Assembly (NCBI GenBank): GCA_965233585.1
Contig: CBDDTI010000747.1
Span: 1-64,000 of the forward strand
DNA from: a bacterium
GTDB taxonomy: Bacteria > SAR324 > NAC60-12
Direction of reading: 5' to 3'
Length of the DNA: 64,000 bases
Below are positions 1,385-28,411 of the stretch, piece after piece. The notes beneath the pieces are model-generated. The model was not told the DNA's origin. It saw nothing but the letters and a program-made list of their open reading frames with translations, and did no database searches. Both the position numbers and the translations under genes were made by a program. Each line of letters opens with the position of its first letter. The first letter of the stretch is position 1.

Positions 1385-1807
1385 CAAGAGGGGTGGCAGG
1401 CGAAGCCTGACGGGGTAGTAGACATTGGCTATAAGGTCTTTTCACTCACCAAAAAACCAAAATTGGTAGAGGAAAAAGACGAGAACCAAAAAGAACTTTT
1501 TGTGTTAGAAAACGAACGCAAAACCACCACCGACACGCTTTATAACATGCTCTGTGCCACTGGCAAACCTTTGCATAGCAATATACAAGAATTGATTAAG
1601 GATAAATTGTATTTGGTAGAAACCAAAGCCGAAGAAGGTACAGAAAAAAGTTTATATGTATTGGGCGAGGTGTCTAGCAAGGATTTGGAGAGGTACGAAG
1701 ATGCTCAAATTTACATTGACGGCTACAGTGATATTAGTTTAGAAAATTGGCTTAACTTGTTTGGCTTGAATGAAAAGGATAAGGAACGAGTCAGTGTGGT
1801 TTATTAG
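1385..1807 (+). pseudogene. C-terminal remnant of a type III R-M modification methyltransferase (Mod)
   Basis: Frame open from 1385 reads QEGWQAKPDGVV-DIGYKVFSL..., matching the D(L/I)G(F/Y)KVF motif of type III Mod C-termini. N-terminus replaced by IS1. Lies upstream of a Res remnant. Confidence 0.7.
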
Positions 1808-1817
1808 GGGATAATTT

Positions 1818-2141
1818 ATGAGTAAAAAATCAAAAGACAAACATTTATTAGAAAAATCTATTCAAGCGACTATATCAGCTATTGAAATTTATAATAAACC
1901 TGACTTTAAATACAGGGAGGAGAGTTTTTGTATTTTAATTGTAAATGCTTGGGAAATACTTTTAAAGGCAAAAATTGTAGCTGATAATAATGGTAAATTA
2001 AAATCAATTTTTGTTATTGATAAACAAGCAAAAAGGAAAGATGGACAAGATTATAAAAAACCAAAATTTAAAAAGAATAGAGCAGGTAATGAATTAACCA
2101 TTGATATTTTTGCTTTTATTAAAGGTATTGTTAAACTATAA
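1818..2141 (+). pseudogene. DUF3644-like protein, N-terminal part, truncated by IS1 at 2124
   Basis: Motif LLEKS...SAIEIYNKPDFKYREESFCILIVNAWEILLKA. The last codons come from the IS left end. Confidence 0.75.
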
Positions 2142-2883
2142 GTGATATGCGATATTAATTTCATTTAATTGAATTGATAGTCATGGTGTAGCAATGAAGT
2201 TGTGTCCTAGATGTGAAAGTGAGAAGACGGTTAAGAATGGTTTTTTATATGGTAAACCGAGGAGGCGTTGCAATGCCTGCAACTATCAATATACCAAGTC
2301 CTATCGTGGTCAAATCTCACCACAGATCAAAAGAAGAGCATTAGAGTTGTATTTGGAGGGTCTTGGTTTCAGGTCAATCGGTCGTTTGCTGAATTGTTCT
2401 CATGTTTCAGTTTATAATTGGGTCTGTAGTTTTGGCGAACAGCTCAAGGCATTAAGAAAGGACACAGACATTGAAATTATGGAAATTGATGAAATGCACA
2501 CCTACATCCAGTCAAAAAAAACTACTGCTGGCTCTGGATTGCTGTTGATAGACGTGGGAAGCAATTTATCAATTATGTGCTTGGAAACAGAGACTCAAAA
2601 GCCTGTAGGCATTTATGGGACAAGGTCAAGGAAACAAAACCTCTTCAGGTGATGACTGATCACTGCAAGGCTTACAAACAAGTCATTCCCAAAGAAATTC
2701 ATACATGTTCCAAGGCAGAAACATACACGATAGAAGGGTATAATTCTCTCTTGAGACATTTCTTGGCAAGAATGAGAAGGAAAACCAAATGTTACAGCAA
2801 GTCTCTTAAAGCATTACAATATTCTGTTCTTTTGTTCATGGCAAAACGGAATAATCAGCTATCACTTATTACTTAACAATGCC
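2124..2883 (+). mobile_element. IS1-family element copy B1 (760 bp)
   Basis: IRs GGTATTGTTAA / TTAACAATGCC. InsA 2194-2652, A8C slippery site 2514-2522 (-1 frame KKNYCWLWIAVDR), InsB ends 2876. Near-identical to 18893-19652. Confidence 0.95.
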
Positions 2884-2913
2884 ATCAGCTATCACTTATT
2901 ACTTAACAATGCC
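2854..2913 (+). repeat. Perfect 30-bp tandem duplication of the IS1 right end
   Basis: ATCAGCTATCACTTATTACTTAACAATGCC at 2854-2883 and 2884-2913. Confidence 0.95.
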
Positions 2914-2918
2914 TTATT

Positions 2919-4091
2919 TTGCAACAAAACCAAATTATAGATAATGAAGGACAAATACAATCGTCAGTTTATGAGTTTTTAAAAACAAATCAAGATAAAT
3001 TGGAGATGCTTAAATTATCTGATGAACGCTATCAAGAAATCTTAACAATCTTTACCGATAACCGTAACTACATAAAAGACGGTAATAAAAAACAGAAAAT
3101 GGTTAAAATCCGTCAAAACAAATGGGAAGAATTTAAACAAGTTTGGGAGACAATTAATAAAAAACCTAAAATTGTTTATCAAAATATTAACGAGAACAAT
3201 ATTATTGAAGATGTAACAACACAATTTAACAGAGAAACCATAGAACCAATCAGAATCACCCGTTATGCTGAAAGATACAATTCTCAAAGCGATAAAATAG
3301 AAACATTAGCAGAGGAACAAATAGGCGAAGTAGATTTTTTCCAAACCCAAAAATTCACGGATTTTTTAGATTTGTTTGTGAAGAAAGAAAAGTTCCCTTT
3401 TGGCTTTATGGTTAAAATGCTTAATAAAATAGACAAGCAAAAAATTAAAAACAACCCCAAAAAAGCTCAAGAAAGATTATTGACTATTCTAAAAGACACT
3501 TTGCATGGTAGCTTGTTAAGTCAAGTGCATTATGAGTTTTTAGACACCATCATTTACCCGAACGATTTACAAAACGAACAAGGCAAGAAAAAGCCAAGCA
3601 TTCCTTATACACTCTTAGGCAAAAATTTTATTGATGAAGAAGCAAGACAAGAGCTACTTTATGACACCATTTGCTTTGACAGTGAGATTGAGAAAACTAT
3701 ACAACAAAACGATCCCCTTACTATTAAAAGTCATTGCGGGCTTGACCCGCAATCTAGGGAGATTCCGCATCAAGTGCGGAATGACGGTGGTAGTGCAAGC
3801 ATTACTGTGTTTGCTAAATTGCCTAAAATCTCTATTCCTACTCCTTACAAAAGTTATAACCCAGACTTTGCTTATTTGATAAAAAAACAAGATGGCAACA
3901 AGCTCTTTTTGGTAGTAGAAGCAAAAGGTTATGAATCTAAAAGCGATATACCTGAAGCAGAACAGCAAAAAATAGACTACGCTCAACAGTTTTTCAAGGA
4001 TTTGCAACAACAAATGCCAGATGTAGAGATTCAATACAAAACAAGAATCAACGGGCAGTCTTTGTTGGATTTGTTGAGTTCAAAACCATAG
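2919..4091 (+). pseudogene. C-terminal remnant of a type III restriction endonuclease (Res)
   Basis: Ends with VFAKLPKISIPTPYKSYNPDFAY...LFLVVEAKG, the type III Res nuclease domain. N-terminal helicase motifs are absent and the ORF abuts the IS end. Confidence 0.85.
3730..3785. repeat. REP/RPE-like double-hairpin palindromic element inside the res ORF
   Basis: GTC-ATTGCGGG-CTTGA-CCCGCAAT-CTAGGGAG-ATTCCGCA-TCAAG-TGCGGAAT-GAC: two 8-bp stems whose halves are inverted copies; GC-rich within an AT-rich gene. Confidence 0.85.
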
Positions 4092-4129
4092 AAAAATCTT
4101 TATAAAAACCTGATGAAATTGCAACTTAC

Positions 4130-5137
4130 ATGACTCAACTTTCAGATACTCAAAAACTTCAAAGGCGTCAAGTTAGCAAAGGCTTTTTACACGATGCCAC
4201 ACAAAACTGGAATGCTGTGCTTGCCTTGGTTGATGAAGACTGCTTTGCCCAAGCCCATGAATTTGCACAACGATTCTTACATCATGCGTTGCAAGGATAT
4301 TTGGCACTTTTTGGTGAGAACACTTATACAACATTGCAAGAGGCGATTGATGGTTTTTTGGAAGAACATCATCAACTTGCACCTGCCAACTTAACGCAAA
4401 CGTTATTCAAGCAAATCAGCCAGCCTCTTGATTATTTTGCTGATGCACGACAAGTAGCAGAATTTCATCGCTTGTTTGATAGCTGTGGAGAAATGAAGTG
4501 GAGGCTTGAAAGGCTTGCTCAACAAAAAATCAAATCAGATTTGTTGACACCACAAGACCGCCTTCAAGCAAAAAAGCGTCAAAAAAATATCGTGATTCGT
4601 GCAGGGATTGCTATCACCACTTTTCTTCTTTGGTTTGGCTTTTATTACAACTCGTATTTAGAAGAGATGAAGGTCAACGCATTTTATACTCAAGCCCAAT
4701 GGTTTTGGATTACACCAGACAAATCTTCTTTTTCAGAGCCTGCATCATTACGTAAACGTTTCAAGGCAGATGGGTCTTTGCAAGAAAATATGATTCAACT
4801 CAATCAACCCGTTGTCGTGAAACAAATCAGACTTGACCCAACAGAATTGCCCATTTCTTACATTGAATTAAATTATATTGAATTGTTGAATCAAGCAGGT
4901 CAGGTCATCAAACGTTTTGAACTGAATCAATCCATGACAGGCTGGCAATCATACAACGCGCAACAAGAACTTTCGCCTGAAGGCAACGTCAGGCTTATTC
5001 CCCAAAACAGCGACCCTTTTGTCATCAGTCCAGAATTTGAAGAATTAGAAGTTTCTGCCATGCGTTGGCAAGGAAAGTTTGTGGACATTCCAAATTTTTG
5101 GAGGTGGCTAGTCCAACCTGAAATACCCATCAAATAA
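4130..5137 (+). CDS. Hypothetical bitopic membrane protein
   Basis: 335-aa ORF: helical N-terminal domain, one TM segment (IAITTFLLWFGFYY), beta-rich C-terminal domain. Confidence 0.7.
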   Translation: MTQLSDTQKLQRRQVSKGFLHDATQNWNAVLALVDEDCFAQAHEFAQRFLHHALQGYLALFGENTYTTLQEAIDGFLEEHHQLAPANLTQTLFKQISQPLDYFADARQVAEFHRLFDSCGEMKWRLERLAQQKIKSDLLTPQDRLQAKKRQKNIVIRAGIAITTFLLWFGFYYNSYLEEMKVNAFYTQAQWFWITPDKSSFSEPASLRKRFKADGSLQENMIQLNQPVVVKQIRLDPTELPISYIELNYIELLNQAGQVIKRFELNQSMTGWQSYNAQQELSPEGNVRLIPQNSDPFVISPEFEELEVSAMRWQGKFVDIPNFWRWLVQPEIPIK

Positions 5138-5167
5138 GGCAATTTTTGACACGAAAGATGATTTGAC

Positions 5168-7255
5168 ATGAAAGATGAATTTTTTAAAAAGGAACTGCCT
5201 GATTCCTATCGCTTTGAATTTGATGATGAAGTGGCATCGGTTTTTGAAGACATGATGCAACGTTCTGTGCCTTTGTATTCAGAGAATCTGCAAATCTGCC
5301 AAGACCTCGCTTTGCTCTTTTACCAACCCAAAAGTCATATTCTTGATTTAGGTTGTTCTACTGGCACACTACTCATCGCCTTGAGCCGCCTGCCTTTTCC
5401 TGACAAACCCGATTTGATTGGCATAGATTCTTCTCCTGCTATGGAAAAGAAGTTTTACCAAAATTGCCAACAACAAAATCCTGATGCCAATTTTGCGTTT
5501 CTACAAATCCCCGTTGAAAAACTGACTTTGGAACTCTGCCAAAACTTGAAGCCTTCGGTTGTCTTTTTCAATTACACCCTACAATTCATTGACCCCAAAA
5601 AACGACAAATTTTATTAGAGCTAATTTATAAAATCCTGTTGCCTCAAGGCATTTTGATTTTATGTGAAAAAACCAAAGCAGAAGACGAGTGGCAAGGCTT
5701 GTTAGAAGACGTGCTTTATGTGCAGTTCAAAAGACACAACGGATATTCAGATGTTGAGATTCAGCAAAAACGTAAGGCATTGCAGTCTGTCTTGACTCCG
5801 CATAGCTTGCCAAGTAATCGGCAAAAATTGAAACAAGCAGGCTTTCAGCACACAGTCACAGTGCTTCAGTGGTGTCAATTTTCTACATTATTGGCTTGTA
5901 AAGACCCGCAAACACCAAGTGTCAGTTTAGAAGAAGCTGATGAATTGGTCATCACTCCAGAATATGAAAAAGTGCTGAAAGCGATTCAGTTAGGTTGCCC
6001 TGTCATCTTCGTCACAGGCAAGGCAGGCACAGGAAAATCTACGCTGATTGAACATCTTAACGAGACATTAGTTGGACAAAAGAAAAATATTGTGAATGTC
6101 GCCCCAACAGGTGTTGCCGCACTGAACGTGCAAGGAATGACGATTCATTCGTTTTTTTGTATTCCTCCAGATGTTGTTGACATCAATGAACTAGAATTTA
6201 AAGGGTCTGGTCAGATTTACCGCAGTCTTGATTTGCTCATCATTGATGAAGTTTCAATGGCACGTGCTGACTTGATAGACTTGATTGATGGCTGTTTGAA
6301 GTATTGGCGGGAATCTACCCAACCCTTTGGGGGCGTGCAAGTCTTGTTGGTGGGCGATTTGTTTCAACTGCCTCCTGTCATCAGAGGTGAAGACTTGGAA
6401 GACTTCAGAAAAAGGGGCTACCTTTCAGAATACTTTTTTTCCGCACGTGTCTTTCAAGACCCTGTGGTCTCTATTGAACTGAAAAAAGTATTCAGGCAAG
6501 CAGACCCTGAATTTGTTGCCGCACTCAATCAAATTCGTGAAGGCATTCAACTCAACCAAGCACTGCATGTCATCAATTCTTGCCTCACTCCAACGATTCC
6601 CCAAGGCGCCATCATGCTCACTGCACGCAATGCCCAAGCAGACGAATACAACCAACAACAGCTTTCAAAAATCCAAGCAGAAGAACATGAGTTTGAAGGG
6701 GAAATCATAGGAAAGTTTAACTTGACAGGTAACAGACTCCCCTCTCCTTCTACTTTGGTTTTGAAAGAAGAGGCTCAAGTTATGTTCACCAAAAACGATG
6801 AAAATAAACGTTGGGTCAATGGGACGCTTGGCAAAGTGATTGGAGTTGAAACCTATGAAGATGAAGAATCAAATGAAGAACAGACGTGTATTGTCGTAGA
6901 GATTTACCAAAATGACTATGTCGCTACTGTGAAGGTTTTGCCAACCAGTTGGGCAACCTTCCGCTATAAATGGGACGCAACAAACCGCACCTTAGAAAAA
7001 GAAAAAATAGGTGAATATATCCAATATCCTTTGACCTTAGCTTGGGCTGTCACGATTCATAAAAGTCAAGGGAAAACATTGCCTTCCGTTTACATTGATT
7101 TGGGAGATGGCGCCTTTGCCCCAGGTCAGGTGTACGTTGCCTTGAGTCGTGCTAAATCTTTGCAAGACCTGCATCTTGCACGCAAAATCTTGCCACGTGA
7201 CGTGCGAGTAGATTTTCGTATCAAAGACTACTATCAAAAGCTTTTTGGAAGTTAG
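5168..7255 (+). CDS. Fusion of a CmoA-like (carboxy-SAM synthase) domain and a Pif1/RecD-like SF1B helicase
   Basis: N-terminus: FEFDDEVASVFEDMMQRSVP, LDLGCSTG, NYTLQFI, GYSDVEIQQKRKAL. C-terminus: GKAGTGKS, APTGVAA, TIHSFF, IIDEVSM, GDLFQLPPV, VFRQ, AWAVTIHKSQG, GQVYVALSR. Confidence 0.9.
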   Translation: MKDEFFKKELPDSYRFEFDDEVASVFEDMMQRSVPLYSENLQICQDLALLFYQPKSHILDLGCSTGTLLIALSRLPFPDKPDLIGIDSSPAMEKKFYQNCQQQNPDANFAFLQIPVEKLTLELCQNLKPSVVFFNYTLQFIDPKKRQILLELIYKILLPQGILILCEKTKAEDEWQGLLEDVLYVQFKRHNGYSDVEIQQKRKALQSVLTPHSLPSNRQKLKQAGFQHTVTVLQWCQFSTLLACKDPQTPSVSLEEADELVITPEYEKVLKAIQLGCPVIFVTGKAGTGKSTLIEHLNETLVGQKKNIVNVAPTGVAALNVQGMTIHSFFCIPPDVVDINELEFKGSGQIYRSLDLLIIDEVSMARADLIDLIDGCLKYWRESTQPFGGVQVLLVGDLFQLPPVIRGEDLEDFRKRGYLSEYFFSARVFQDPVVSIELKKVFRQADPEFVAALNQIREGIQLNQALHVINSCLTPTIPQGAIMLTARNAQADEYNQQQLSKIQAEEHEFEGEIIGKFNLTGNRLPSPSTLVLKEEAQVMFTKNDENKRWVNGTLGKVIGVETYEDEESNEEQTCIVVEIYQNDYVATVKVLPTSWATFRYKWDATNRTLEKEKIGEYIQYPLTLAWAVTIHKSQGKTLPSVYIDLGDGAFAPGQVYVALSRAKSLQDLHLARKILPRDVRVDFRIKDYYQKLFGS

Positions 7256-7917
7256 TCCAAAATGACTTCAAAGCTCAGCCATGAGGCAACAACCAAGAAC
7301 GTGTCAAAGATGAGCAACAGCTTCCACCACGACCAAAATTCTAACTCACTGCCAGAAAAAAAGATGTAATTGGAGATTTTAACCGCACTGATGAGTCCGG
7401 GAACAGCAAGGGGGAACAGGAGAATTGGTAAAAGGATTTCTCTGCCCGGAATCTGTGAGGTGATGATAGAAAGCACCACTGCCACTGCAGAAAATCCCAA
7501 AGACCCAAAGACTAACACTGCAAAAAGCCACAGAAACGATTGGGGAAAGATGCTAAAGGCGACGCATAAAAAAAACATCATCACCACCAATGTCAGTAAC
7601 AAAAAAAGAAAGGTTGCCAGAAGTTTGCTTAAAAACAAAACTCCGCGATCTATTGGGGCGCTGATTAATAAATCAATACGTCTGTCTATGGCTTCTTGAC
7701 TGGTTTGTTTGTTGATGGCAAGCGTTCCTGCTGTCAAAAAAACAGCCCAAAGCATGCCGGGCGCCATCAATGCTACTTCTTGCGCATCATGGTCAAATGC
7801 AAAACGCAAAACAATCAGAGAAAGACTTGTGAAACAAATGATTGAAAGAACGCTTTCTTTCTGACGAAACTCAATTAAAAAATCTTTGTATAAAATGGCA
7901 ACAATTTGCTGAATCAT
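7252..7917 (-). CDS. ccmB: Heme exporter protein B
   Basis: Polytopic; KDFLIEFRQK, APGMLW, REILLPILLFPLAVP motifs. ATG at 7917 chosen over the longer ORF start. Confidence 0.85.
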   Translation of the reverse strand: MIQQIVAILYKDFLIEFRQKESVLSIICFTSLSLIVLRFAFDHDAQEVALMAPGMLWAVFLTAGTLAINKQTSQEAIDRRIDLLISAPIDRGVLFLSKLLATFLFLLLTLVVMMFFLCVAFSIFPQSFLWLFAVLVFGSLGFSAVAVVLSIITSQIPGREILLPILLFPLAVPGLISAVKISNYIFFSGSELEFWSWWKLLLIFDTFLVVASWLSFEVILD

Positions 7918-10460: not shown

Positions 10461-11044
10461 GTTTTTGGGTTTTGTTGGGTTGCAATCCAGTGAATCGCTT
10501 GGGGCAAGATGAGACGTTCTTGTTCTTGAATACGTTGGGTCAGGGTGTCTAATGTGTCATGCTCGTCAATGGGGACAGCAGATTGAGCAATGAGCTGTCC
10601 TGTGTCAATTCCTTCATCAACAAAAAAGACAGACGCACCTGTGACCTTTGCTCCATAATCCAACGCCTGTTGCACAGCATTTAAGCCAGCAAATGCAGGT
10701 AAAAGCGATGGGTGAACATTGATGATTTTGTCCCTCCAAAGTTTCACAAACTCCGCAGACAGCAACCTCATAAAGCCTGCCAGCACAATCAAGTCAACTT
10801 GTGATTCTGACAGAATCTGATGCAGCATCATATCAAAATCAAGTCTTGAAGCAAAGGTTTTGCGGTCTATAAAGTGGGATTGAATCCCGTGCGTTTCAGC
10901 CCGTTGCAGTGCAAAAGCCTGTGCCTTGTCTGCAATGACAACCTGAATCTGAACAGGAAGTTTGCCTTGTTCAGATTGGTTGATGATTTCTTGCAAATTA
11001 CTCCCATACCCTGATGCTAAAACGGCAATAGGCAGTTTCGTCAT
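10457..11044 (-). CDS. purN: Phosphoribosylglycinamide formyltransferase
   Basis: ASGYGSNLQ, LAGFMRLL, NVHPSLLPAF motifs. Confidence 0.96.
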   Translation of the reverse strand: MTKLPIAVLASGYGSNLQEIINQSEQGKLPVQIQVVIADKAQAFALQRAETHGIQSHFIDRKTFASRLDFDMMLHQILSESQVDLIVLAGFMRLLSAEFVKLWRDKIINVHPSLLPAFAGLNAVQQALDYGAKVTGASVFFVDEGIDTGQLIAQSAVPIDEHDTLDTLTQRIQEQERLILPQAIHWIATQQNPKT

Positions 11045-12828
11045 ATTGAATCAGCACCTGACTTTGCATGATTGATGGCAACTTGTTGCTCCATGTCTAT
11101 TTTATGCTGTTTCAGTTTAGCTCGTAGGTCTGCATGATGAACGGCAAGAATTTGGGTGGCTAAAATGGCTGCATTAGCACCGCCTCCAATCGCAACAGTA
11201 GCAACAGGCACACCCGGTGGCATTTGAACAATGGACAACAGGGCATCATGTCCCTCTAAACTAGATTTAATGGGGACGCCAATGACAGGCTTGATGGTTT
11301 GAGATGCCACGACCCCGGGCAAATGTGCTGCCATTCCTGCAAAAGCAATGAAGACCCCCGCCCCTGCATTTTCGCACTCTTGAATGAATTGCGTCACACG
11401 GTCAGGTGAACGGTGTGCAGAGGCGACGATGGCTTTGTAGCTGACCCCAAATTGCTTTAAAATCGCAGCAGATTTTTTGACAATTTCCAAATCTGAGTGA
11501 CTTCCTGCCACCATGCCCACACAAATTTCAGGGTGATTTTTTTCATGGAAAAGCCCTTTTAAGCCAATATCTCTGCGATACGTTTTGCCCTTCCATTGAA
11601 TTTTAGGGACTTGTTCATAAGCTCTATTTAGTGCCTGTTCCAATGTGTTTGCTCTGGTGGTGATGCTCAAAACCCGTCCCCCGTTGACTCGGAAGGCTTG
11701 ACCATCTGCCACTGTGCCTGCATGAAACACCTTGACTGCTTCGTCATTGCAAACTTGCTCCAATCCTGAAATCACCTCACCTTTCACAGGATTCTTGGGA
11801 TAGCCTTCTGCGGCAAGAACAACACATGCAGCGGCTTCGTGTAACTGTAGTGAGTCTTGATATTTAGCCAGCTGACCTTTGGCTGCGTCAAGGAACAACG
11901 GCACAATGTCATTTTTAAACCGCATCATCATCACTTGACATTCAGGGTCTCCCAGACGGCAATTAAATTCAACAACTTTGGGCTGACCTTCGTGAATCAT
12001 CAATCCAGCATAAAGCACGCCTTGATATGGACGCCCTTCCTTTGCCATGCCTTCAATCGTGGGTTGAACAATTTGATCCAAAATTTTTTGTTCTACTTCC
12101 TTGGTGATGACAGGTGCTGGAGAATAAGCACCCATGCCACCTGTGTTCAAGCCTGTTTCCAGTTCACCAATGCGTTTATAATCCTGACTGTTTGGCAAAG
12201 TGACAAAGTCTTGACCATCAGAGATGACAAAATACGAGGCTTCCTCACCTTCTAAAAATTCTTCAATCACAACGGAACGTCCTGCCTCGCCAAACAACAC
12301 GCCTGAAAGCATGCCTTCAATCGTACGTCCAGCTTCTGCAAGGTCTTGACAAATCACAACACCTTTTCCACCTGCTAATCCACTGGCTTTGACAACATAA
12401 GGAGCGTTGAGCGTGTGCAAAAATTCTACGGCTTGAGAGGTTTGATGAGACTGGAAGGTTTGAAAGTTTGCAGTAGGAATGCCATGTTTTTTCATAAATT
12501 CTTTGGCAAAGGCTTTGTCTCCTTCTATTCTGGCACTTTCTGCTGACGCCCCAACAACAAGATGATTTTTCTGCCTCAAAGCATCGGCTAGTCCGGAGAC
12601 TAAATATTGCTCACTGCCAATCACTGTTAAGTCTATTTGGTGCGTTTCTACCAGCTTGACGATTTGTTCATTGGTCTCTTGTTCAGAGCAAAGCTCATGG
12701 CATGTTGCCACTTGTGCAATGCCTGCATTGCCCGGTGAACAAAAAAGTTCTTTGACAAGGGGACTTTGGGAGATTTTCCAGCAAAGTGCGTGTTCTCTTG
12801 CTCCATTTCCAACAACTAAGATTTTCAT
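11041..12828 (-). CDS. purD: Fused phosphoribosylamine-glycine ligase / N5-CAIR mutase (PurD-PurE)
   Basis: GNGAREHA, KASGLAGGKGV, NTGGMGAYSP, EFNCRLGDPE, followed by PurE motifs GSHSD, SAHRSP, AGMAAHLPG, VQMPPGVPVATV. Confidence 0.95.
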   Translation of the reverse strand: MKILVVGNGAREHALCWKISQSPLVKELFCSPGNAGIAQVATCHELCSEQETNEQIVKLVETHQIDLTVIGSEQYLVSGLADALRQKNHLVVGASAESARIEGDKAFAKEFMKKHGIPTANFQTFQSHQTSQAVEFLHTLNAPYVVKASGLAGGKGVVICQDLAEAGRTIEGMLSGVLFGEAGRSVVIEEFLEGEEASYFVISDGQDFVTLPNSQDYKRIGELETGLNTGGMGAYSPAPVITKEVEQKILDQIVQPTIEGMAKEGRPYQGVLYAGLMIHEGQPKVVEFNCRLGDPECQVMMMRFKNDIVPLFLDAAKGQLAKYQDSLQLHEAAACVVLAAEGYPKNPVKGEVISGLEQVCNDEAVKVFHAGTVADGQAFRVNGGRVLSITTRANTLEQALNRAYEQVPKIQWKGKTYRRDIGLKGLFHEKNHPEICVGMVAGSHSDLEIVKKSAAILKQFGVSYKAIVASAHRSPDRVTQFIQECENAGAGVFIAFAGMAAHLPGVVASQTIKPVIGVPIKSSLEGHDALLSIVQMPPGVPVATVAIGGGANAAILATQILAVHHADLRAKLKQHKIDMEQQVAINHAKSGADSI

Positions 12829-18068: not shown

Positions 18069-18830
18069 TTAACTTAAACTCTGGTTTGGGGAAGTGATGC
18101 GGAGTTGTCCTGATTCTTCTTCTAAAATGTAAATCCCTAAAGACTTCGCTTTTTCTAACACTTTGGGTTGAATCACTTCTGCTGCAATACCCAGACGAAT
18201 GTTGCCTTTGTATCTGGGATAAGCCTGTTCTAAAAAATCCCGCTGCTTGAAAAGCTGGTCAAAGGTTTTCATCTTCGGATTGTGCTTCACTTCTATCAAA
18301 AACAGCTGCGTGTCATTACGCATGATGATGTCGCATTCTGTCTGAATAACACCTTCCTTCATAATCTGCATTCCTTTTTCTACATGGTCATAATGAATGC
18401 CATCTACTACCTCCATATTAGAAAGACTTTCTGCATAACGTTTTTCATACTTCTCGCTTTCAACGTCTGTGTAACGTCCTATTTGTTTGGCTAAATCAGA
18501 CAACACCTGATCCATCTTTGCCTCCCGTTCTTTACGTTCTTGCTTCCATCTTTCAAAATCTGCATCACGTCTGGCTTGCAATTCTGCTTCTTGCTTTTCA
18601 CGCTCTGCTTCTCGTTTCTCACGTTCTGCTTGTGCCTCTGCTTCTCGTTTTTCACGCTCTGCCTCTAGCTCTTTCTTCCACTCCTCAAACTCTGCTTCTC
18701 GTTGGGCTTTTGCTTCGGCTTGCTCTTTGGCAAAGGCTTTTTTCCACGCTGCAAACTCTGCGTCTCGTTGGATTTGTGCTTTGGCACTTTCTTCCAAGAT
18801 TCTTTCTATTCTATCTAAACGTTCTGACAT
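18069..18830 (-). CDS. Coiled-coil + PD-(D/E)XK nuclease-like protein, array copy 1 (253 aa)
   Basis: AGGAG RBS before ATG 18830. E/K/R/A-rich coiled coil, then ECDIIMRN...LIEVK motif (DUF3782-like). Confidence 0.8.
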   Translation of the reverse strand: MSERLDRIERILEESAKAQIQRDAEFAAWKKAFAKEQAEAKAQREAEFEEWKKELEAEREKREAEAQAEREKREAEREKQEAELQARRDADFERWKQERKEREAKMDQVLSDLAKQIGRYTDVESEKYEKRYAESLSNMEVVDGIHYDHVEKGMQIMKEGVIQTECDIIMRNDTQLFLIEVKHNPKMKTFDQLFKQRDFLEQAYPRYKGNIRLGIAAEVIQPKVLEKAKSLGIYILEEESGQLRITSPNQSLS

Positions 18831-18892
18831 CACCACTCCTTGACAATGAATGCACAACAATCAAAAAACTCCAGTCTAACAGAGGCTTCTTA

Positions 18893-19652
18893 GGCATTGT
18901 TAAGTAATAAGTGATAGCTGATTATTCCGTTTTGCCATGAACAAAAGAACAGAATATTGTAATGCTTTAAGAGACTTGCTGTAACATTTGGTTTTCCTTC
19001 TCATTCTTGCCAAGAAATGTCTCAAGAGAGAATTATACCCTTCTATCGTGTATGTTTCTGCCTTGGAACATGTATGAATTTCTTTGGGAATGACTTGTTT
19101 GTAAGCCTTGCAGTGATCAGTCATCACCTGAAGAGGTTTTGTTTCCTTGACCTTGTCCCATAAATGCCTACAGGCTTTTGAGTCTCTGTTTCCAAGCACA
19201 CAATTGATAAATTGCTTCCCACATCTATCAACAGCAATCCAGAGCCAGCAGTAGTTTTTTTTGACTGGATGTAGGTGTGCATTTCATCAATTTCCATAAT
19301 TTCAATGTCTGTGTCCTTTCTTAATGCCTTGAGCTGTTCGCCAAAACTACAGACCCAATTATAAACTGAAACATGAGAACAATTCAGCAAACGACCGATT
19401 GACCTGAAACCAAGACCCTCCAAATACAACTCTAATGCTCTTCTTTTGATCTGTGGTGAGATTTGACCACGATAGGACTTGGTATATTGATAGTTGCAGG
19501 CATTGCAACGCCTCCTCGGTTTACCATATAAAAAACCATTCTTAACCGTCTTCTCACTTTCACATCTAGGACACAACTTCATTGCTACACCATGACTATC
19601 AATTCAATTAAATGAACTTAATATCGCATATCACTTATAGTTTAACAATACC
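18893..19652 (-). mobile_element. IS1-family element copy B2 (760 bp)
   Basis: Same IRs and ORFs (19124-19582, 18900-19199) as 2124-2883, with only a few SNPs seen. No target duplication. Confidence 0.95.
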
Positions 19653-19795
19653 AAAAAAAGAATGAGTCAGCAGAGAGGCTAACCTAAAACTAAAAATGAG
19701 GAAGGAAAAAGTCTGCTCACTCTTTTCAAAGAACATCAAAGAACGAATTGAAAACTAAAAAAGAAAGTAACGAAAAATGAGCAGCGAAGACAAAG

Positions 19796-20389
19796 TTAAC
19801 TTAAACTCTGGTTTGGGGAAGTGATGCGGAGTTGTCCTGATTCTTCTTCTAAGATGTAAATCCCTAAAGACTTCGCTTTTTCTAACACTTTGGGTTGAAT
19901 CACTTCTGCAGCAATGCCCAGACGAATGTTGCCTTTGTATCTGGGATAAGCCTGTTCTAAAAAATCCCGCTGCTTGAAAAGCTGGTCAAAGGTTTTCATC
20001 TTCGGATGGTGCTTCACTTCTATCAAAAACAACTGGGTGTCATTACGCATGATGATGTCGCATTCTGTCTGAATAACACCTTCCTTCATAATCTGCATTC
20101 CTTTTTCTACATGGTCATAATGAATGCCATCTACCATCTCCATATTAGAAAGACTTTCTGCATAACGTTTTTCATACTTCTCGCTTTCAACGTCTGTGTA
20201 ACGTCCTATTTGTTTGGCTAAATCAGACAACACCTGATCCATCTTTGCCTCCCGTTCTTTACGTTCTTGCTTCCATCTTTCAAAATCTGCATCACGTCTG
20301 GCTTGCAATTCTGCTTCTTGCTTTTCACGCTCTGCTTGGGCTTTGATGCTGTCTTCTAAAATCTTTTCTATGCGGTCTAATCTGTCCAT
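19796..20389 (-). CDS. Coiled-coil + PD-(D/E)XK nuclease-like protein, array copy 2 (197 aa)
   Basis: AAGGTG RBS, MDRLDRIEKILED start; C-terminal domain nearly identical to copy 1. Confidence 0.8.
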   Translation of the reverse strand: MDRLDRIEKILEDSIKAQAEREKQEAELQARRDADFERWKQERKEREAKMDQVLSDLAKQIGRYTDVESEKYEKRYAESLSNMEMVDGIHYDHVEKGMQIMKEGVIQTECDIIMRNDTQLFLIEVKHHPKMKTFDQLFKQRDFLEQAYPRYKGNIRLGIAAEVIQPKVLEKAKSLGIYILEEESGQLRITSPNQSLS

Positions 20390-20858
20390 TTTCAAACACC
20401 TTTAAAAGTTAGATTTGAATAAGATCGGGTTAAGAGAGAATCTAAATAACTAGAATCCTCAAAACGTCAAAAATAACTATAAAACAAATTACAAAAAAAG
20501 ACATTCTCAAATTGCATTTGAAATAATCAAAAAACAGAAGAAAACTAAAGAATGAATCAAAAAATGAATTGACAGACTAGAAAGAACAGAAAAAGAAAGA
20601 AGGAAGGAAGGAAAGAGCTGACTCGCTCTTGAAAAGAAAATCTTGCAAAGAAAATTGAAAACAGGAAAGGGACAGAAAAAGAAAGAAGGAAGGAAAGAGC
20701 TGACTCGCTCTTTCAGAAAAAAAAGAATGAGTCAGCAGAGAGGCTAACCTAAAACTAAAAATGAGGAAGGAAAAAGTCTGCTCACTCTTTTCAAAGAACA
20801 TCAAAGAACGAATTGAAAACTAAAAAAGAAAGTAACGAAAAATGAGCAGAGGGAAGGA

Positions 20859-21506
20859 TTAGTCTAAGCTCTGGTTAGGGGAAGTGATGCGGAGTTCTCC
20901 CGATTCTTCTTCTAAAATGTAAATCCCTAAAGACTTTGCTTTTTCTAACACTTTGGGTTGAATCACTTCTGCGGCAATGCCAAGACGAATGTTGCCTTTG
21001 TATCTGGGATAAGCCTGCTCTAAAAAATCCCGCTGCTTGAAAAGCTGATTAAAAGTTTTCATCTTCGGATGGTGCTTCACCTCTATCAAAAACAGCTGCG
21101 TGTCATTACGCATGATGATGTCGCACTCCACCTGACCTAAATCCTTGTTCGCAATACACATTCCCTCTTCTACATTGTCATAATGAATCCCATCTACTGT
21201 CTCCATTCTGGTTAGACTTTCTGCATAACGTTTCTCATACTTCTGACTTTCAATGTCTGTGTAACTGCCTAGTTGCTTGGCTAGATTAGACATCACCTCA
21301 TCCAGCTTTGCTTCCCGCTTTTCACGTTCTTTCTTCCATCTTTCAAAGTCTGCATCTCGTTTGGCTTGCGCTTCTGCTTCTTTTGCCTGCCACTTAGCAA
21401 AGTCTGCATCTCGTTTAGCTTGTGCTTCTGCTTCTCGTTTTTCACGCTCGGCTTGTGCCTTCGCATTGTCTTCTAAAATCTTTTCTATGCGGTCTAATCT
21501 GTCCAT
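20859..21506 (-). CDS. Coiled-coil + PD-(D/E)XK nuclease-like protein, array copy 3 (215 aa)
   Basis: GAGGTG RBS; same architecture, ECD...IEVK motif. Confidence 0.8.
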   Translation of the reverse strand: MDRLDRIEKILEDNAKAQAEREKREAEAQAKRDADFAKWQAKEAEAQAKRDADFERWKKEREKREAKLDEVMSNLAKQLGSYTDIESQKYEKRYAESLTRMETVDGIHYDNVEEGMCIANKDLGQVECDIIMRNDTQLFLIEVKHHPKMKTFNQLFKQRDFLEQAYPRYKGNIRLGIAAEVIQPKVLEKAKSLGIYILEEESGELRITSPNQSLD

Positions 21507-21725
21507 TTTCAATCACCTCAAAAGTTAGTTTTGGATAAGAGTAGGTTTAAGAGAGAATCCAAGTTGCTAGAATCCTCACATCCAACACAAAATACGATAA
21601 CTCAAAAATCAACAAAAAGACATTCTTAATTAGGATTTGAAACAATCCAAAACAAAAGAACACCAAAAAACGAATTGAAAACGAACAAGAAAGTCACAAA
21701 AAATGAGAATGGAGAGAGGAAAGGG

Positions 21726-22520
21726 TTAACTTAAACTCTGGTTAGGGGAAGTGATGCGGAGTTCTCCCGATTCTTCTTCTAAAATGTAAATTCCTAAAGA
21801 CCTTGCTTTTTCTAGCACTTTGGGTTGAATCACTTCTGCAGCAATGCCAAGACGAATGTTGCCTTTATATCTGGGATAAGCCTGCTCTAAAAAATCCCGC
21901 TGCTTGAAAAGCTGATTAAAGGTTTTCATCTTCGGATGGTGCTTCACCTCTATCAAAAACAGCTGCGTGTCATTACGCATGATGATGTCGCACTCCACCT
22001 GACCTAAATCCTTGTTCGCAATACACATTCCCTCTTCTACATTGTCATAATGAATCCCATCTACTGTCTCCATTCTGGTTAGACTTTCTGCATAACGTTT
22101 TTCATACTTCTGACTTTCAATGTCTGTGTAATTGCCTATCTGTTTGGCTAAATTAGACATCACCTCATCCAGCTTTGCCTCTCGTTCTTTACGTTCTTTC
22201 TTCCATCTTTCAAAATCGGCATCTCGTTTGGCTTGTGCTTCAGCTTCTCGCTTTTCACGCTCGGCATCTCGCTTTTCACGCTCGGCATCTCGTTTGGCTT
22301 GTGCTTCAGCTTCTCGTTTTTCACGCTCGGCATCTCGCTTTTCACGCTCTGCTTCCCATTTCTCACGTTCTGTTTGTGCTTTAGCTTGTGCTTCAGCTTC
22401 TCGTTTTTCACGTTCTGCTTCTAGCTCTTTTTTCCACGCTGCAAACTCTGCGTCTCGTTGGATTTGTGCTTTGGCACTTTCTTCCAAGATTCTTTCTATT
22501 CTATCTAAACGTTCTGACAT
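21726..22520 (-). CDS. Coiled-coil + PD-(D/E)XK nuclease-like protein, array copy 4 (264 aa)
   Basis: MSERLDRIE start as in copy 1; expanded 21-bp (D/E)AEREKR repeats; C-terminal domain like copy 3. Confidence 0.8.
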   Translation of the reverse strand: MSERLDRIERILEESAKAQIQRDAEFAAWKKELEAEREKREAEAQAKAQTEREKWEAEREKRDAEREKREAEAQAKRDAEREKRDAEREKREAEAQAKRDADFERWKKERKEREAKLDEVMSNLAKQIGNYTDIESQKYEKRYAESLTRMETVDGIHYDNVEEGMCIANKDLGQVECDIIMRNDTQLFLIEVKHHPKMKTFNQLFKQRDFLEQAYPRYKGNIRLGIAAEVIQPKVLEKARSLGIYILEEESGELRITSPNQSLS

Positions 22521-22635
22521 CACCACTCCTTGACAATGAATGCACAACAATCAAAAAACTCTAGTCTAACAGAGGCTTCTTAGAAAAAGAAGACACACCA
22601 AGACCTCAAGACTTCACAAACAAGAGCAAGAAAGC

Positions 22636-23899: not shown

Positions 23900-26800
23900 C
23901 TAGAAATTTCCGTTAGGCGTAGAATTTGTTGCTGCAGCATCATCTGTTGCTTGATTACCTGCTGAATCATAAACCCCAGACTTAATTTTAGCAGCAGAGA
24001 AAGTATCAGAACCACTAAGTGTTGCTAGTGTCCCAACACCACCACCAACAACGCTAGCAATAGGTAAGGTTAAGATTTTCTTGTCAGAATTAAAAGAACC
24101 AGCAGTAACTGTAAATGATTCGTTTGCATCAGAGTATCCAGTAGCACCTTTAAAAGTTGCTATTTCATTACCATTTGTTGCTGATGTTCCATGATAGATA
24201 GTAAATAAGCCAGAAGTTTGAGTATAGGTAATGTAATAATCAGCTTCTGCCGTACCGCCTACATCGCCATCAAAGTCAACATCTATAGCTTCAGGGAAAG
24301 TGATTGTTATCTTATCACCAACCTCAATTTTATAAGCTGTATTAGCAGAAGTCTTGCCAGCTATAGCAATAGAGGAGATGACAGGTTTAGTGTTATCGAA
24401 AGTGACTGCTAATTTAGAACTAGCAACTGAAACATTACCTGCTGCATCTTTGAGGAACAAATACAAATCTTTGCTAGCTCCAGCACTTGGAAGTAAGCCT
24501 GTATGACCTGAAAGATCAACATCAGTTTTATTCAAGTTTGTTGCTGAAGTGACTGAAACCCAACCGCTATTGCCACTAGATTTACTTGCATCTTTTGCTG
24601 GCGCAGGCGGTTTAGTCCCTCCTGTGGCAACTGAAATAGCATAGTAAGCCGTTACTCCAACTGTATCTGTTCCTGTGATGGTAAAATTATCACCAGCAGC
24701 CTTAATCAAAGCTGTCCCTGTTTGAGAACCAACTTTGATGGCTGGACTTGCTGGTGCAGTACTGTCTGGATTTGGCAGAGTGAACTTGGCATCAGTTCCA
24801 GTATGACTCGCAGCATTGCCTGCAACATCTTTGACCTTGTTTTGTTTAGGAGTCAAAGCATTGCCTGCTTTTATATCTGCCAAACTTCCACCAGACACTA
24901 AAGTTATGACCCACTCATCATCAGCTGCTCCACTTCCTGTTTTGCTGTCAATCGTAGAATTTCCTAAATTGGGTGTTCCACTCGCAGCAGTGCCTTTAAC
25001 AATGGCAAAGAAAGTTGATGCTGTTTTGTTAGAACTGCTCCAACCATCTAAAGCTACTGTCTCATCAAATTTCAGTGTAATCGTGTCATTAGCATTATAA
25101 GCACTGTCAGTGTTTGTATCTGTAAAGACAACAGGATTAGAAGAGTCTGCTTTGGGAGCAGTCTTGTCTGAAGCTGGCAAAGTAAACTTAGCATCATTGC
25201 CAGTATGATTCGCAGCATTGCCTGCAGCATCTTTGACCTTACCTGATTTAGGAGTCAAAGTATTGCCTGCTTTAATGTCTGCAAGACCTCCACTATTCAC
25301 TAAAGTTATGACCCACTCATCATCAGCTGCTCCACTTCCTGTTTTGCTATCAATGGTAGAAGCACCTAAATTGGGCGTTCCACTTGCTGCAGAACCTTGA
25401 GCAATGGCAAAGAAAGTTGAGGCTGCTTTGTTAGAACTGCTCCAACCATCTAAAACTACTGGCTCATCAAATTTCAGTGTAATCGTGTCATCAGCATTAT
25501 AAGCACTGTCAGAGTCGTTATCTGCAAAGACAACAGGATTAGAAGAGTCTGCTTTGGGAGCAGTCGTGTCTGAAGCAGGAGCTTGCCCGCCAGCAGTTGC
25601 GATTTTTTTGGAGACGATTTGGCTTGCCATTTTGTTTGGAGTAGCCGCTTTGTCTTTGATGACGTTTGCTTGGAACTTGACGAAGACATACTTGCCTGCC
25701 ACTAAAGCAGTTTGGTTAGGCAAAGTGATGGTCAGTTGAGTTTGGTCATTTTTTGCACTCCAAGCGATTTTTTTGGCAGTCAGTTTTGTGCCTGCAGAAC
25801 TCCCTGCTGTGCCATCTACGCTTAACTCTGCAATCAAATTGCTGACTTCGGTGATTGAGGTGTCTATCACTTCACTAAATTCCACCACAACTTTTCGTCC
25901 ATTGCCTGAAAATCTTGGGCTCACGTCTGCAAGTTCTGCAGTGGGTTTGGTTGTGTCTTTGACACCAGAGACAGTGATAGCATTGTCTGTTGCATCAGCC
26001 ACAGCTGTTTTGGCTTCGATGAATCCTGCAGCGGCTGCTAGGTTGTAAGTTGTATCATCTGAAGACTTGGTTCCATTTGTATCTAAAACGGCATCAATCG
26101 CTGTTTTGGCAGTGCCTTTAAAAGTCACAGTGGCTTTGGTCGCACTATCAGCACCAATGGTAGTTGTATTATCACCAGAACCAGCAGCTAGGGTCACATC
26201 AGAACCCTTCCCTTGAACTTTTAGCTTAGTGATGTCCCAGCCATCTGTTGCGGTTGCCAAATCTTGCCCTGTGATGACTAACTTGCCAGTAGAGGCATCG
26301 TAAGTGGCACTTTCAATGACAGGGTCGCCTGCGGCAACAACCTTAATGGTGTAAGTGATGGTGACTTTGGAGTCTCTGTGTTTCTTACTTGAAAGAGTGA
26401 CGTCCACGATGGCAGTGTTTGCGTCTGTGAGCTTGGCGTGGTCAAAAGTGATGGCACTGCTAGCGACTAAATAGCCATCGTCGCCTGTTCCTGGAGTTGA
26501 ATTTTTCTCAACTTTTGAGACTGTTGGATTCACTAGTGCAGACATACCTGTTGCAGTTTTTGCTGAGGCTAAGATGTCGGCTGTGCTGATGGTGAGACCT
26601 GTTGAAGTGACAGTGACGCTTTCAGCTTTGGTAGCATCTGCTACTTTCGCTCCTTTGTGAGCTGTGTTGGAACATTGGATGTCAGAGATTTTTCCGCTTG
26701 AACTGACTTTGAGACAAAGGTTTCCTGCAGCAATGTAGTCATCGTGGCTTGAACTGTCCTTGGTGTATGTTTTCCAAGTGAGACCACCATCGGTTGAATA

Positions 26801-28411
26801 TTCATAAGTGTAGCCTGATTTTTGACCATCAAAAGTGATTTTTCCATCGTCTCCCACACTGATTTTAGAAGGTGCAGTGTAACCGTCGTCTTCTGTCACT
26901 TTGGTTTCTTTTTTGTCAATCTGTTTTGCATAAACAACCCAGTCAGAAGCTAGGTATTTGCCTTCAGAGGCTTTGACACGGACGCCAAGTTGGTTGGCTT
27001 GCACTTGAGCATCACCAAAATTATAAGGTGCTGTACAATCTTCAATTTTGTCAGCAGTCGCACTTGAGCCTGCTTTGGTACATTCATACTTTGCACCTGT
27101 TACCATGGAGAATGAAAGTTCTCTTGCCACTTTGTCAATGTTATCGTCAGCAATGGCATTAGGTTTGTCCATTTTGGGAAGTGCCTGCTTGGCAACAGTG
27201 ATTTTGGCACTTTTGGCTGCATCAGACGCCAAATAAGCTTTGGTGGCTTTGGTGCGGACACTGAGTTCTTTGTCTTTAATTTCTGCGAGGTCTTTGACAA
27301 CATCATTGCTTTGGCAGTCAAACCAAGACTCTCCACCTTCAAGCTGGCACTCATAATAGCCGGGTGCATCTGCTCCAGTAGGTTTTGGTTTGTCAGCATT
27401 TGTAATCGTGATGACACCATTTGCGACTGCGACTGATTTAGGTGCAGTGGCTTTTGCAGTCACGTCTGCATTAGGCTCCACAGATTTTGCTGGTTTGATA
27501 GACAGAGTGATTGGATAAGTTTTTTTAATTGAATCAATGGCAGCGTTGGTATAAGTGGCTGTCACTAACGTAGAACACTTCCCAACAGCAAGCTTGGAGG
27601 CTGTGGCGAACTTCCCTTTGGCATTAGCTGTGTCTTCAATCGTGAAACAACCATTGTTGGCTGGGACGTAAGTTGCAGCCAAGGTGAACCCTTGTACATC
27701 TACGGTAGAAGACAACGTAAACCCTTTGAATTGTTCTGCAGCAACAGCATGCTTGTTAGCAACGATGGTGCTGAACAGATGCGTTCGGCTCTCTTTAGCA
27801 GTAATCAATCGCTTATTCTTTTTAGGATTGTCCGTTTGAAGTGCAGCTTTGACGACAACCCGAGTGACTTCTTCGTTTTGGGCAAATTCATCTGGATCAA
27901 CATTGAAGTCAATCTTATTGATTTCAGCAGGGGCGTCTTTGACATGTTCCAAATTGATTCCGTTGGAGGGGTCTCCGTCTGCATCAAGGGTTTGAACAAA
28001 GCGTGCAAAGTTTTCTACAGCATCAGTGATTTGTTCACCATCTTCTACAAAGATGTCAGCAGGGCTGAGGATTTTGTCTGCCCCAGCCTTGCCTAATTCT
28101 GTTTCAGCAGGGACTTGGAATTTGGCAATCTCCACTCCACCGAGCGAGAACGCCACGTCTTTGCCTGAAAAGTATTTAAACTTTCCTTCTTTGTCAGTCG
28201 TGCCAGACTTGCTAGCAGACTTATAATCCACACCTGCCACAGCACTATCCACGAAGTATCCCACTTTCGCTTCTGCTTCTGCAGGTTGATCTCCAGCGAC
28301 AGCTTCCTTCTTTTCGGAAGTGCTACTATCGTTGTTATTAGCACATGACAGCACCATCGCTGACGTCAAACCGAAAGCCGCAATGTATGCAAATTTTTTA
28401 AGCATGTTCAT
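23900..28411 (-). CDS. Large surface lipoprotein / adhesin with Ig-like repeats (1503 aa)
   Basis: AAGGAG RBS, lipobox VLSC, adhesin-type GYFVDSAVAGVDY...TDKEGKF and LDADGDPSNGI segments, repeated DTT(K/A)P Ig-like modules, A/T/S/G/D/K-rich composition. Confidence 0.88.
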   Translation of the reverse strand: MNMLKKFAYIAAFGLTSAMVLSCANNNDSSTSEKKEAVAGDQPAEAEAKVGYFVDSAVAGVDYKSASKSGTTDKEGKFKYFSGKDVAFSLGGVEIAKFQVPAETELGKAGADKILSPADIFVEDGEQITDAVENFARFVQTLDADGDPSNGINLEHVKDAPAEINKIDFNVDPDEFAQNEEVTRVVVKAALQTDNPKKNKRLITAKESRTHLFSTIVANKHAVAAEQFKGFTLSSTVDVQGFTLAATYVPANNGCFTIEDTANAKGKFATASKLAVGKCSTLVTATYTNAAIDSIKKTYPITLSIKPAKSVEPNADVTAKATAPKSVAVANGVITITNADKPKPTGADAPGYYECQLEGGESWFDCQSNDVVKDLAEIKDKELSVRTKATKAYLASDAAKSAKITVAKQALPKMDKPNAIADDNIDKVARELSFSMVTGAKYECTKAGSSATADKIEDCTAPYNFGDAQVQANQLGVRVKASEGKYLASDWVVYAKQIDKKETKVTEDDGYTAPSKISVGDDGKITFDGQKSGYTYEYSTDGGLTWKTYTKDSSSHDDYIAAGNLCLKVSSSGKISDIQCSNTAHKGAKVADATKAESVTVTSTGLTISTADILASAKTATGMSALVNPTVSKVEKNSTPGTGDDGYLVASSAITFDHAKLTDANTAIVDVTLSSKKHRDSKVTITYTIKVVAAGDPVIESATYDASTGKLVITGQDLATATDGWDITKLKVQGKGSDVTLAAGSGDNTTTIGADSATKATVTFKGTAKTAIDAVLDTNGTKSSDDTTYNLAAAAGFIEAKTAVADATDNAITVSGVKDTTKPTAELADVSPRFSGNGRKVVVEFSEVIDTSITEVSNLIAELSVDGTAGSSAGTKLTAKKIAWSAKNDQTQLTITLPNQTALVAGKYVFVKFQANVIKDKAATPNKMASQIVSKKIATAGGQAPASDTTAPKADSSNPVVFADNDSDSAYNADDTITLKFDEPVVLDGWSSSNKAASTFFAIAQGSAASGTPNLGASTIDSKTGSGAADDEWVITLVNSGGLADIKAGNTLTPKSGKVKDAAGNAANHTGNDAKFTLPASDKTAPKADSSNPVVFTDTNTDSAYNANDTITLKFDETVALDGWSSSNKTASTFFAIVKGTAASGTPNLGNSTIDSKTGSGAADDEWVITLVSGGSLADIKAGNALTPKQNKVKDVAGNAASHTGTDAKFTLPNPDSTAPASPAIKVGSQTGTALIKAAGDNFTITGTDTVGVTAYYAISVATGGTKPPAPAKDASKSSGNSGWVSVTSATNLNKTDVDLSGHTGLLPSAGASKDLYLFLKDAAGNVSVASSKLAVTFDNTKPVISSIAIAGKTSANTAYKIEVGDKITITFPEAIDVDFDGDVGGTAEADYYITYTQTSGLFTIYHGTSATNGNEIATFKGATGYSDANESFTVTAGSFNSDKKILTLPIASVVGGGVGTLATLSGSDTFSAAKIKSGVYDSAGNQATDDAAATNSTPNGNF
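24774..25577 (-). repeat. Intragenic tandem duplication, 2 x 402 bp (134 aa)
   Basis: D(T/K)TAPKADSSNPVVF...DAKFTLP occurs twice, at 25176-25577 and 24774-25175. Confidence 0.92.

Follow-up and report, generated by a model that had tools for sequence, protein, structure and literature searches.

The locus studied here raises the question of why a carboxy-SAM synthase, CmoA, should be joined to a Pif1-family helicase in one chain, and whether the two halves work together. It lies in a window of 64,000 nucleotides, the whole stretch of DNA that was analysed. An earlier note had described an uninterrupted 695-aa ORF, and this was borne out by a single stop-free frame (Table 1), whose product is referred to as P0001. 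The stop of the fusion and that of ccmB, a convergent gene, share 4 bases (7252–7255).

Table 1. Features of the cmoA-pif1 locus. Positions are those of the window; residues are those of the fusion protein.
Feature	Position	Strand	Basis
cmoA-pif1 fusion ORF, 695 aa (P0001)	5168–7255	+	Single stop-free frame
CmoA carboxy-SAM synthase domain, residues 1–245	5168–5902	+	TIGR00740, 194.2 bits; model pLDDT 95.6, TM 0.85 to E. coli CmoA 4gek
Pro115, in the place of adenine-binding Asp117 of E. coli CmoA	5510–5512	+	Pro in both fusions, in 0/126 stand-alone CmoA
Arg202 (E. coli Arg199), carboxylate-binding residue, in QKRKAL	5771–5773	+	Alignment
Linker, residues 246–257, 12 aa	5903–5938	+	Poorly conserved; frame-keeping indels relative to P0002
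Pif1-family SF1B helicase core, residues 258–695	5939–7252	+	PF05970; best PDB matches bacterial Pif1 8bns, 8bnv, 5ftb; motifs
Walker A 284–291, Walker B 358–364, motif VI 654–661	Pif1 half
In-frame TTG (Leu260), possible internal start for free Pif1	5945–5947	+	No distinct SD signal
335-aa gene of no known family, ancestral upstream neighbour of cmoA	4130–5137	+	Homologues directly upstream of cmoA in G003, G006, G008 and G016
Decayed defence remnant: DUF3644/PDC-S19 fragment, IS1-like transposase genes, C-terminal piece (third) of type III Res	1463–4091	+	

An assembly or sequencing artefact might have joined two genes. The earlier note had called for a check of the sequence across 5880–5960, and no stop or frameshift was found there: Logan contigs from all four runs crossed the junction without difference. 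None of the public runs listed for the gene is an RNA run. These are contigs rather than raw reads, at a depth of 3–5, from at most two samples of one study that is possibly the assembly's own source. In three of the four runs, a single contig covered 4000–8100 with no difference. The contig of the fourth run (X4, depth 3) covered 4000–7262 and carried one extra T at approximately 6151 (T7 run 6152–6158), away from the junction. This T would end the Pif1 frame soon after; it was absent from the other three runs and is probably an error. Since the assembly may have been built from these runs, the independent evidence comes from P0002. This 693-aa protein, encoded in another assembly, is 78% identical over the whole length and carries the same fusion with a different linker. 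Identity between the two proteins was 189/245 in the CmoA half and 350/438 in the Pif1 half, compared with 4/9 plus 4 gap columns in the linker, the least conserved part, whose length and sequence changed with the frame kept. The composition of the assembly was also considered. Only 7 contigs (2.99 Mb) of the 12-Mb assembly share the composition and coding density of the window's contig, and the remaining 740 contigs (9.0 Mb) are unlike the bacterium. Those 740 contigs have another tetranucleotide make-up and mostly low coding density, though the listed contamination is 2%. The window itself, however, sits on a 1.07-Mb contig of uniform bacterial composition. With four runs agreeing and P0002 at hand, an artefact is exceedingly unlikely; the CmoA-Pif1 fusion is real.

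To our searches, the architecture is very rare. Among the best 120 of 7,999 matches of 382–1217 aa, both halves were covered only by P0001 and P0002. Among 1.84 billion representatives, only P0002 aligned over residues 1–695 within the best 150. When the CmoA half was compared with proteins of 432–2000 aa, 3 of 1,290 candidates carried it, namely the two fusions and P0121, a CmoA-CmoB fusion. The best of 1,750 matches of the CmoA half to proteins of similar length reached 44% identity; close sisters without the fusion are thus absent from the record. A CmoA profile match was found in none of 148 new Pif1 representatives, a set in which a fused member behind an unfused representative would be missed. 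The scan of viral_contigs gave no further fusion. Neither did genome_contigs (2 loci) and metagenome_contigs (5 loci), where the three loci examined fully (L036, L038 and L039) encoded stand-alone Pif1. L038 was rejected as a fusion, as its apparent match to residues 149–694 is not CmoA. No CmoA-Pif1 fusion was found in the literature within the search, which left supplements and most subscription journals outside. As far as these searches reach, the architecture is new, and it represents a single event in a narrow lineage that joined two known families. P0121 (588 aa, with an 80-residue N-terminal extension) resembles the fusion in having CmoA as the N-terminal part of a longer chain, but it joins two steps of one pathway, whereas the CmoA-Pif1 fusion joins unrelated functions.

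For the CmoA half, the hallmarks that the earlier note had seen over about 245 aa were confirmed by a match of residues 2–245 to TIGR00740. The pass was marginal (194.2 bits for P0001 and 193.7 for P0002 vs a cut-off of 193.3), and P0001 missed the cut-off of PRK15451 (148 vs 285). In E. coli CmoA, numbered here from the 4gek alignment, the cofactor is described as held by Tyr39, Asp62, Gly64, Ser66, Asp89, Asn90, Asp117, Ile118, Asn132, Phe137 and Arg199 (PMC3663124). Both fusions keep Y37, D60, G62, S64, D87, N135, F140, E167 and R202, the equivalents of E. coli Tyr39, Asp62, Gly64, Ser66, Asp89, Asn132, Phe137, Glu164 and Arg199. R202 is the Arg of QKRKAL, which had rightly been taken for the Cx-SAM-binding Arg. 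The exception is the column of Asp117, whose side chain binds adenine in E. coli CmoA (PMC3663124): it holds Pro in both fusions, compared with Asp in 115 of the 126 stand-alone CmoAs, and none of the 11 without Asp has Pro. All 26 columns that are invariant among the 126 were kept in both fusions, and at 64 conserved columns P0001 departed 6 times and P0002 4 times, compared with 2–8 times in family relatives. The model of the domain has a class I methyltransferase fold with lid helices, and its top six Foldseek matches were CmoA/YecO chains; it was built on the family alignment and hence leans toward CmoA. The likeness to CmoA of E. coli (4GEK/4IWN) and YecO of H. influenzae (1IM8) thus lies in the fold, the cofactor residues and a cmoB in the genome. 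Stand-alone CmoA homologues (n = 126) are 231–271 aa long; unlike them, the 695-aa fusion has a 450-residue C-terminal extension and a 5-residue insert before strand 4, besides the Pro at Asp117.

The best named CmoA matches came from SAR324-group bacteria. In a quick tree of 68 rows, the fusions joined the six family CmoAs in a weakly supported (81) group of 11 rows and had a long stem; not included were 60 of the 120 homologues listed, three duplicate relatives, and G005 and G015, both of them divergent. The stem of the fusion pair was 1.21, compared with 0.13–0.79 for the end branches of relatives, and may hide a change of CmoA function. Identity to relatives was 40–45% for CmoA (45–77% among the relatives themselves) and 43–47% for CmoB (61–68% among themselves). 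By this sequence comparison, the lineage is fast-evolving overall, with CmoA no more diverged than CmoB.

For the Pif1 half, the earlier note had expected a complete SF1B helicase after a short linker. The core is indeed complete, and what is missing is the leader of about 40 aa found in the nearest stand-alone homologues. Motifs I, Ia, II, III, IV, V and VI, called with patterns that we take to be those of SF1B helicases, were all present, and every invariant column of alignment A4 includes the query. Pfam PIF1 matched residues 266–447 with 114.4 bits (cut-off 25.9). The half aligned end to end with the solved bacterial Pif1s 8bns (E 8e-90), 8bnv and 5ftb, including the 2B (SH3-like) region and the segment between motifs II and III ending in PFGGVQ, presumably the Pif1 'signature'. 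An identity as RecD2 or RecD was rejected, with scores far below the cut-offs (TIGR01448 82 vs 500; TIGR01447 58 vs 310). The likeness to bacterial Pif1 (8BNS and 8BNV; 5FTB/5FHD of Bacteroides; 6S3E of T. oshimai) extends over the whole core, motifs I–VI and the 2B region. The fusion differs in having a metabolic enzyme as its N-terminal partner and in lacking a C-terminal domain, WYL or otherwise. Of the 148 Pif1 representatives, 73 are extended appreciably at the N or C terminus; the other N-terminal additions seen were DnaJ, Sel1, TPR and ankyrin, none of them CmoA-like. The role of bacterial Pif1 is described as little known (PMC9964779).

In 104 of the 118 nearest stand-alone Pif1s, Walker A comes after 60–79 residues that mostly include a shared leader, compared with 38 residues from the end of CmoA to Walker A in the fusion and no trace of the leader. 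In a tree of 59 rows (every fourth near match and every fifth representative), the fusion pair stood beside a leader-bearing group. Loss of the leader is not proven by this, since the support is weak (82) and the solved bacterial Pif1s begin at about the position of Leu260 anyway; the donor may have had no leader. Searches of the 44 other family genomes and of 63 genomes of the order, incomplete genomes included, gave no Pif1. Because none of these 63 other genomes has one, Pif1 was likely imported. The nearest stand-alone homologues are about 50% identical, and the named ones come from varied phyla. Codon use of the fusion is genome-typical (62nd percentile). The Pif1 half is probably foreign but old. 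Between P0001 and P0002, highly conserved columns were identical at 58/59 (98%) in CmoA and 147/152 (97%) in Pif1, compared with 59/91 (65%) and 87/140 (62%) of variable columns. This pattern of substitution points to purifying selection on both halves.

Only one cmoA was found in the genome. The earlier note had reported no cmoB in the window, and there was indeed no match there; an intact cmoB (319 bits vs a cut-off of 275) lies on contig C746, which has the same composition as the window's contig. The two genes occur together in the same 9 of 45 family genomes (8 of 44 others and this one). In the eight relatives, the cmoA frames are 254–315 aa, and in four of them cmoB is not beside cmoA. 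In G003, G006 and G008, two pairs of genes are followed by a gene of about 335 aa, cmoA and cmoB; G016 keeps the 335-aa gene before cmoA, and G007 keeps cmoB after it. Here this 7-gene run is split over four places: the 335-aa gene with cmoA, one pair at 49.9–51.7 kb of the window, the other pair on C295, and cmoB on C746. Thus, unlike CmoA systems with an adjacent cmoB, the two genes are apart. The 335-aa protein, which had no Pfam, NCBIfam or PADLOC match, shares 25–29% identity with its homologues upstream of cmoA in four relatives. The cmoA of the fusion is a housekeeping gene at its ancestral position. The divergent cmoA genes of G015 (L013) and G005 (L050), with 32–34% identity and far from cmoB, perhaps represent a separate acquisition.

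The idea of a lineage-specific fusion was upheld, as only two proteins carry it and relatives have stand-alone cmoA. A simple stop-codon read-through into a native neighbour was not: in relatives cmoA is followed by cmoB, and Pif1 is lacking altogether, which calls for a rearrangement involving an imported gene. On the large contigs, two IS1-like transposase ORFs found in the window recur in 16 and 35 copies with at least 90% identity.

Other features of the genome were recorded. A peptidase-U32 gene is present, with TrhP as its best model, below the cut-off, and TrhO was not found in the genome. The only valine tRNA found was tRNA-Val(TAC) (G000:C295:182632-182707), and 62% of Val codons are GTT or GTC. 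The tRNA-Val(GAC) pattern was found in 0 of 45 family genomes and has no positive control, so the missing tRNA says nothing specific on the need for CmoA. For arginine, tRNAs with the anticodons GCG and TCG were found and none with ACG. RpsB is encoded in a frame of 653 aa in this genome (G000:C747:631631-633589) and of 651 aa in G008 (C50:64683), compared with 259–459 aa in other family genomes; as the long frame is shared with G008 and not private here, the notion of a fusion-prone genome was dropped. By eye, the – strand of the window holds a 595-aa ORF with the look of a PurD-PurE fusion (11041–12828). It also holds four near-identical tandem genes with variable charged coiled-coil repeats, a shared nuclease-like C-terminal domain and an IS among them (18069–22550), and a repeat protein of 1503 aa that looks secreted and begins like a lipoprotein (23900–28411).

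The earlier note had also proposed a coupling of carboxymethyl-donor synthesis to unwinding and had placed the fusion two genes from a decayed R-M locus. The type III Res fragment is in fact separated from the fusion by a single gene. In such a coupling, the helicase would open DNA or RNA while CmoA supplied Cx-SAM locally for a carboxymethyl mark, perhaps linked to R-M. There is a precedent in phages, where CmoA feeds the DNA cytosine carboxymethyltransferase CmoX, a C5-methyltransferase homologue (PMC12783734). The phage CmoA-CmoX-CmoY system resembles the present locus in having CmoA-made Cx-SAM near DNA-acting enzymes, but here no CmoX was found, cmoB is present and the locus is a chromosomal housekeeping one; the word 'helicase' is absent from the passages searched of that paper (PMC12783734). 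In this genome (92% complete), no CmoX-type C5-methyltransferase with SPPC and Arg350 was found beside cmoA and no full C5-methyltransferase at all: PF00145 gave five matches, all partial and weak (E 5e-5 at best), on small contigs and none on the five large bacterial contigs. Cx-SAM has an ordinary user in the intact CmoB. No record among the 620 matched phages or the 65 matched plasmids covered at least 80% of the fusion.

As for the R-M remnant, the Res gene is a fragment of 33% GC among recent IS copies, compared with 40–43% GC in the fusion. Because its GC differs and it lies on the far side of the ancestral 335-aa neighbour gene, we judged the remnant to be incidental. An arrival of Pif1 with an R-M cassette is not favoured either, as GC and codon use differ and no evident R-M gene stood beside Pif1 in the three homologue loci examined. 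No full-length PADLOC defence-model match was obtained; the 16 partial ones (best E 3.5e-18) were nearly all to the generic helicase core. The coupling thus found no support, and we regard it as very unlikely.

The reading that we consider probable is that two independent enzymes share one chain, tethered by chance and locked in as Pif1 likely relies on the cmoA start. A rearrangement in this IS-rich genome would have broken the old operon, and the imported Pif1 would have landed where cmoB used to be, with removal of the cmoA stop and of Pif1's own 5′ end. Pif1 would then depend on the cmoA promoter and start codon, and the absence of an evident separate start for Pif1 would keep the fusion in place. 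Since a new stop in the linker would silence a useful helicase, the fusion could be kept without any need for cooperation of the domains. A promoter scan gave 4 hits vs 7.3 expected, which is at chance level. The CmoA half presumably still converts SAM and prephenate to Cx-SAM, which would diffuse to CmoB, a separate protein, and serve there to make cmo5U, a wobble modification of tRNA. The Pif1 half may act as an ATP-driven 5′-3′ DNA helicase in repair or replication, with each half under selection for its own job.

Judged from sequence, the single ancestral cmoA, the intact cmoB, the IS copies, the lack of Pif1 in relatives, the invariant columns kept, the variable linker and the missing leader would all fit a chance tether. 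By analogy with E. coli CmoA, in which a lid is described as covering the cofactor where nucleic acid would bind (PMC3663124), separate jobs would also be expected. Against independent enzymes stand the Asp117-to-Pro change in both fusions and the long stem, which may reflect a change of CmoA function. The same holds for the narrow pass of TIGR00740 with the miss of PRK15451, the persistence of the fusion through 22% protein divergence, and the small number of examples, two.

If free Pif1 were also made, from the internal TTG (5945) or by cleavage of the linker, the enzymes would be mostly separate and one ORF would give two products. The TTG at Leu260 sits where solved bacterial Pif1s start, the Leu is kept in P0002, and the extra T of the X4 contig adds to the case. 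However, the SD signal at 5945 was not above background (52nd percentile of internal TTGs), in a test that is weak because SD use is low genome-wide. Leu260 is also needed for the fold, and the extra T was absent from the sample's other run and from both runs of the other sample. We find two products quite improbable.

The CmoA domain might instead serve as a structural or regulatory module, whose homodimer holds two helicases together and whose cofactor binding might tune unwinding. E. coli CmoA is reported to dimerise in solution through a conserved interface (PMC3663124), T. oshimai Pif1 as inhibited by dimerisation (PMC8053095), and the N-terminal tail of Pif1, which follows the linker here, as helping to bind nucleotide (PMC9964779). 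The Pro and the long stem common to both fusions, and the frequent terminal extensions of Pif1, would agree with this. The linker, however, is short, acidic and not conserved, the fusion has one origin only, and, with the catalytic residues and cmoB still in place, conservation is explained by the original job. A complex prediction for the two halves (score 0.00) was counted neither way, and the model of the whole fusion, from a 2-row alignment, had a pLDDT of 31.9. We hold such a module, the strongest rival to the chance tether, to be unlikely. A version in which CmoA is a dimerising, metabolite-sensing head, with occupancy by SAM, prephenate or Cx-SAM tuning Pif1 and tying DNA maintenance to the shikimate/SAM state, we hold to be about as unlikely.

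If the halves were coupled in this way, the protein would be a metabolite-regulated Pif1, of which we know no earlier case; the present evidence does not point there. Within the searches made, the pairing of these domains, seen in two proteins, is unreported. The likely reading, a housekeeping gene and an independent helicase tethered by chance, would make it a clear illustration of how, in a shuffled genome, an imported gene becomes fixed through fusion with a housekeeping one, and would caution against assuming a common function from such a fusion. The protein also offers a natural test case of a Pif1 forced onto a dimeric scaffold and of a CmoA without Asp117.
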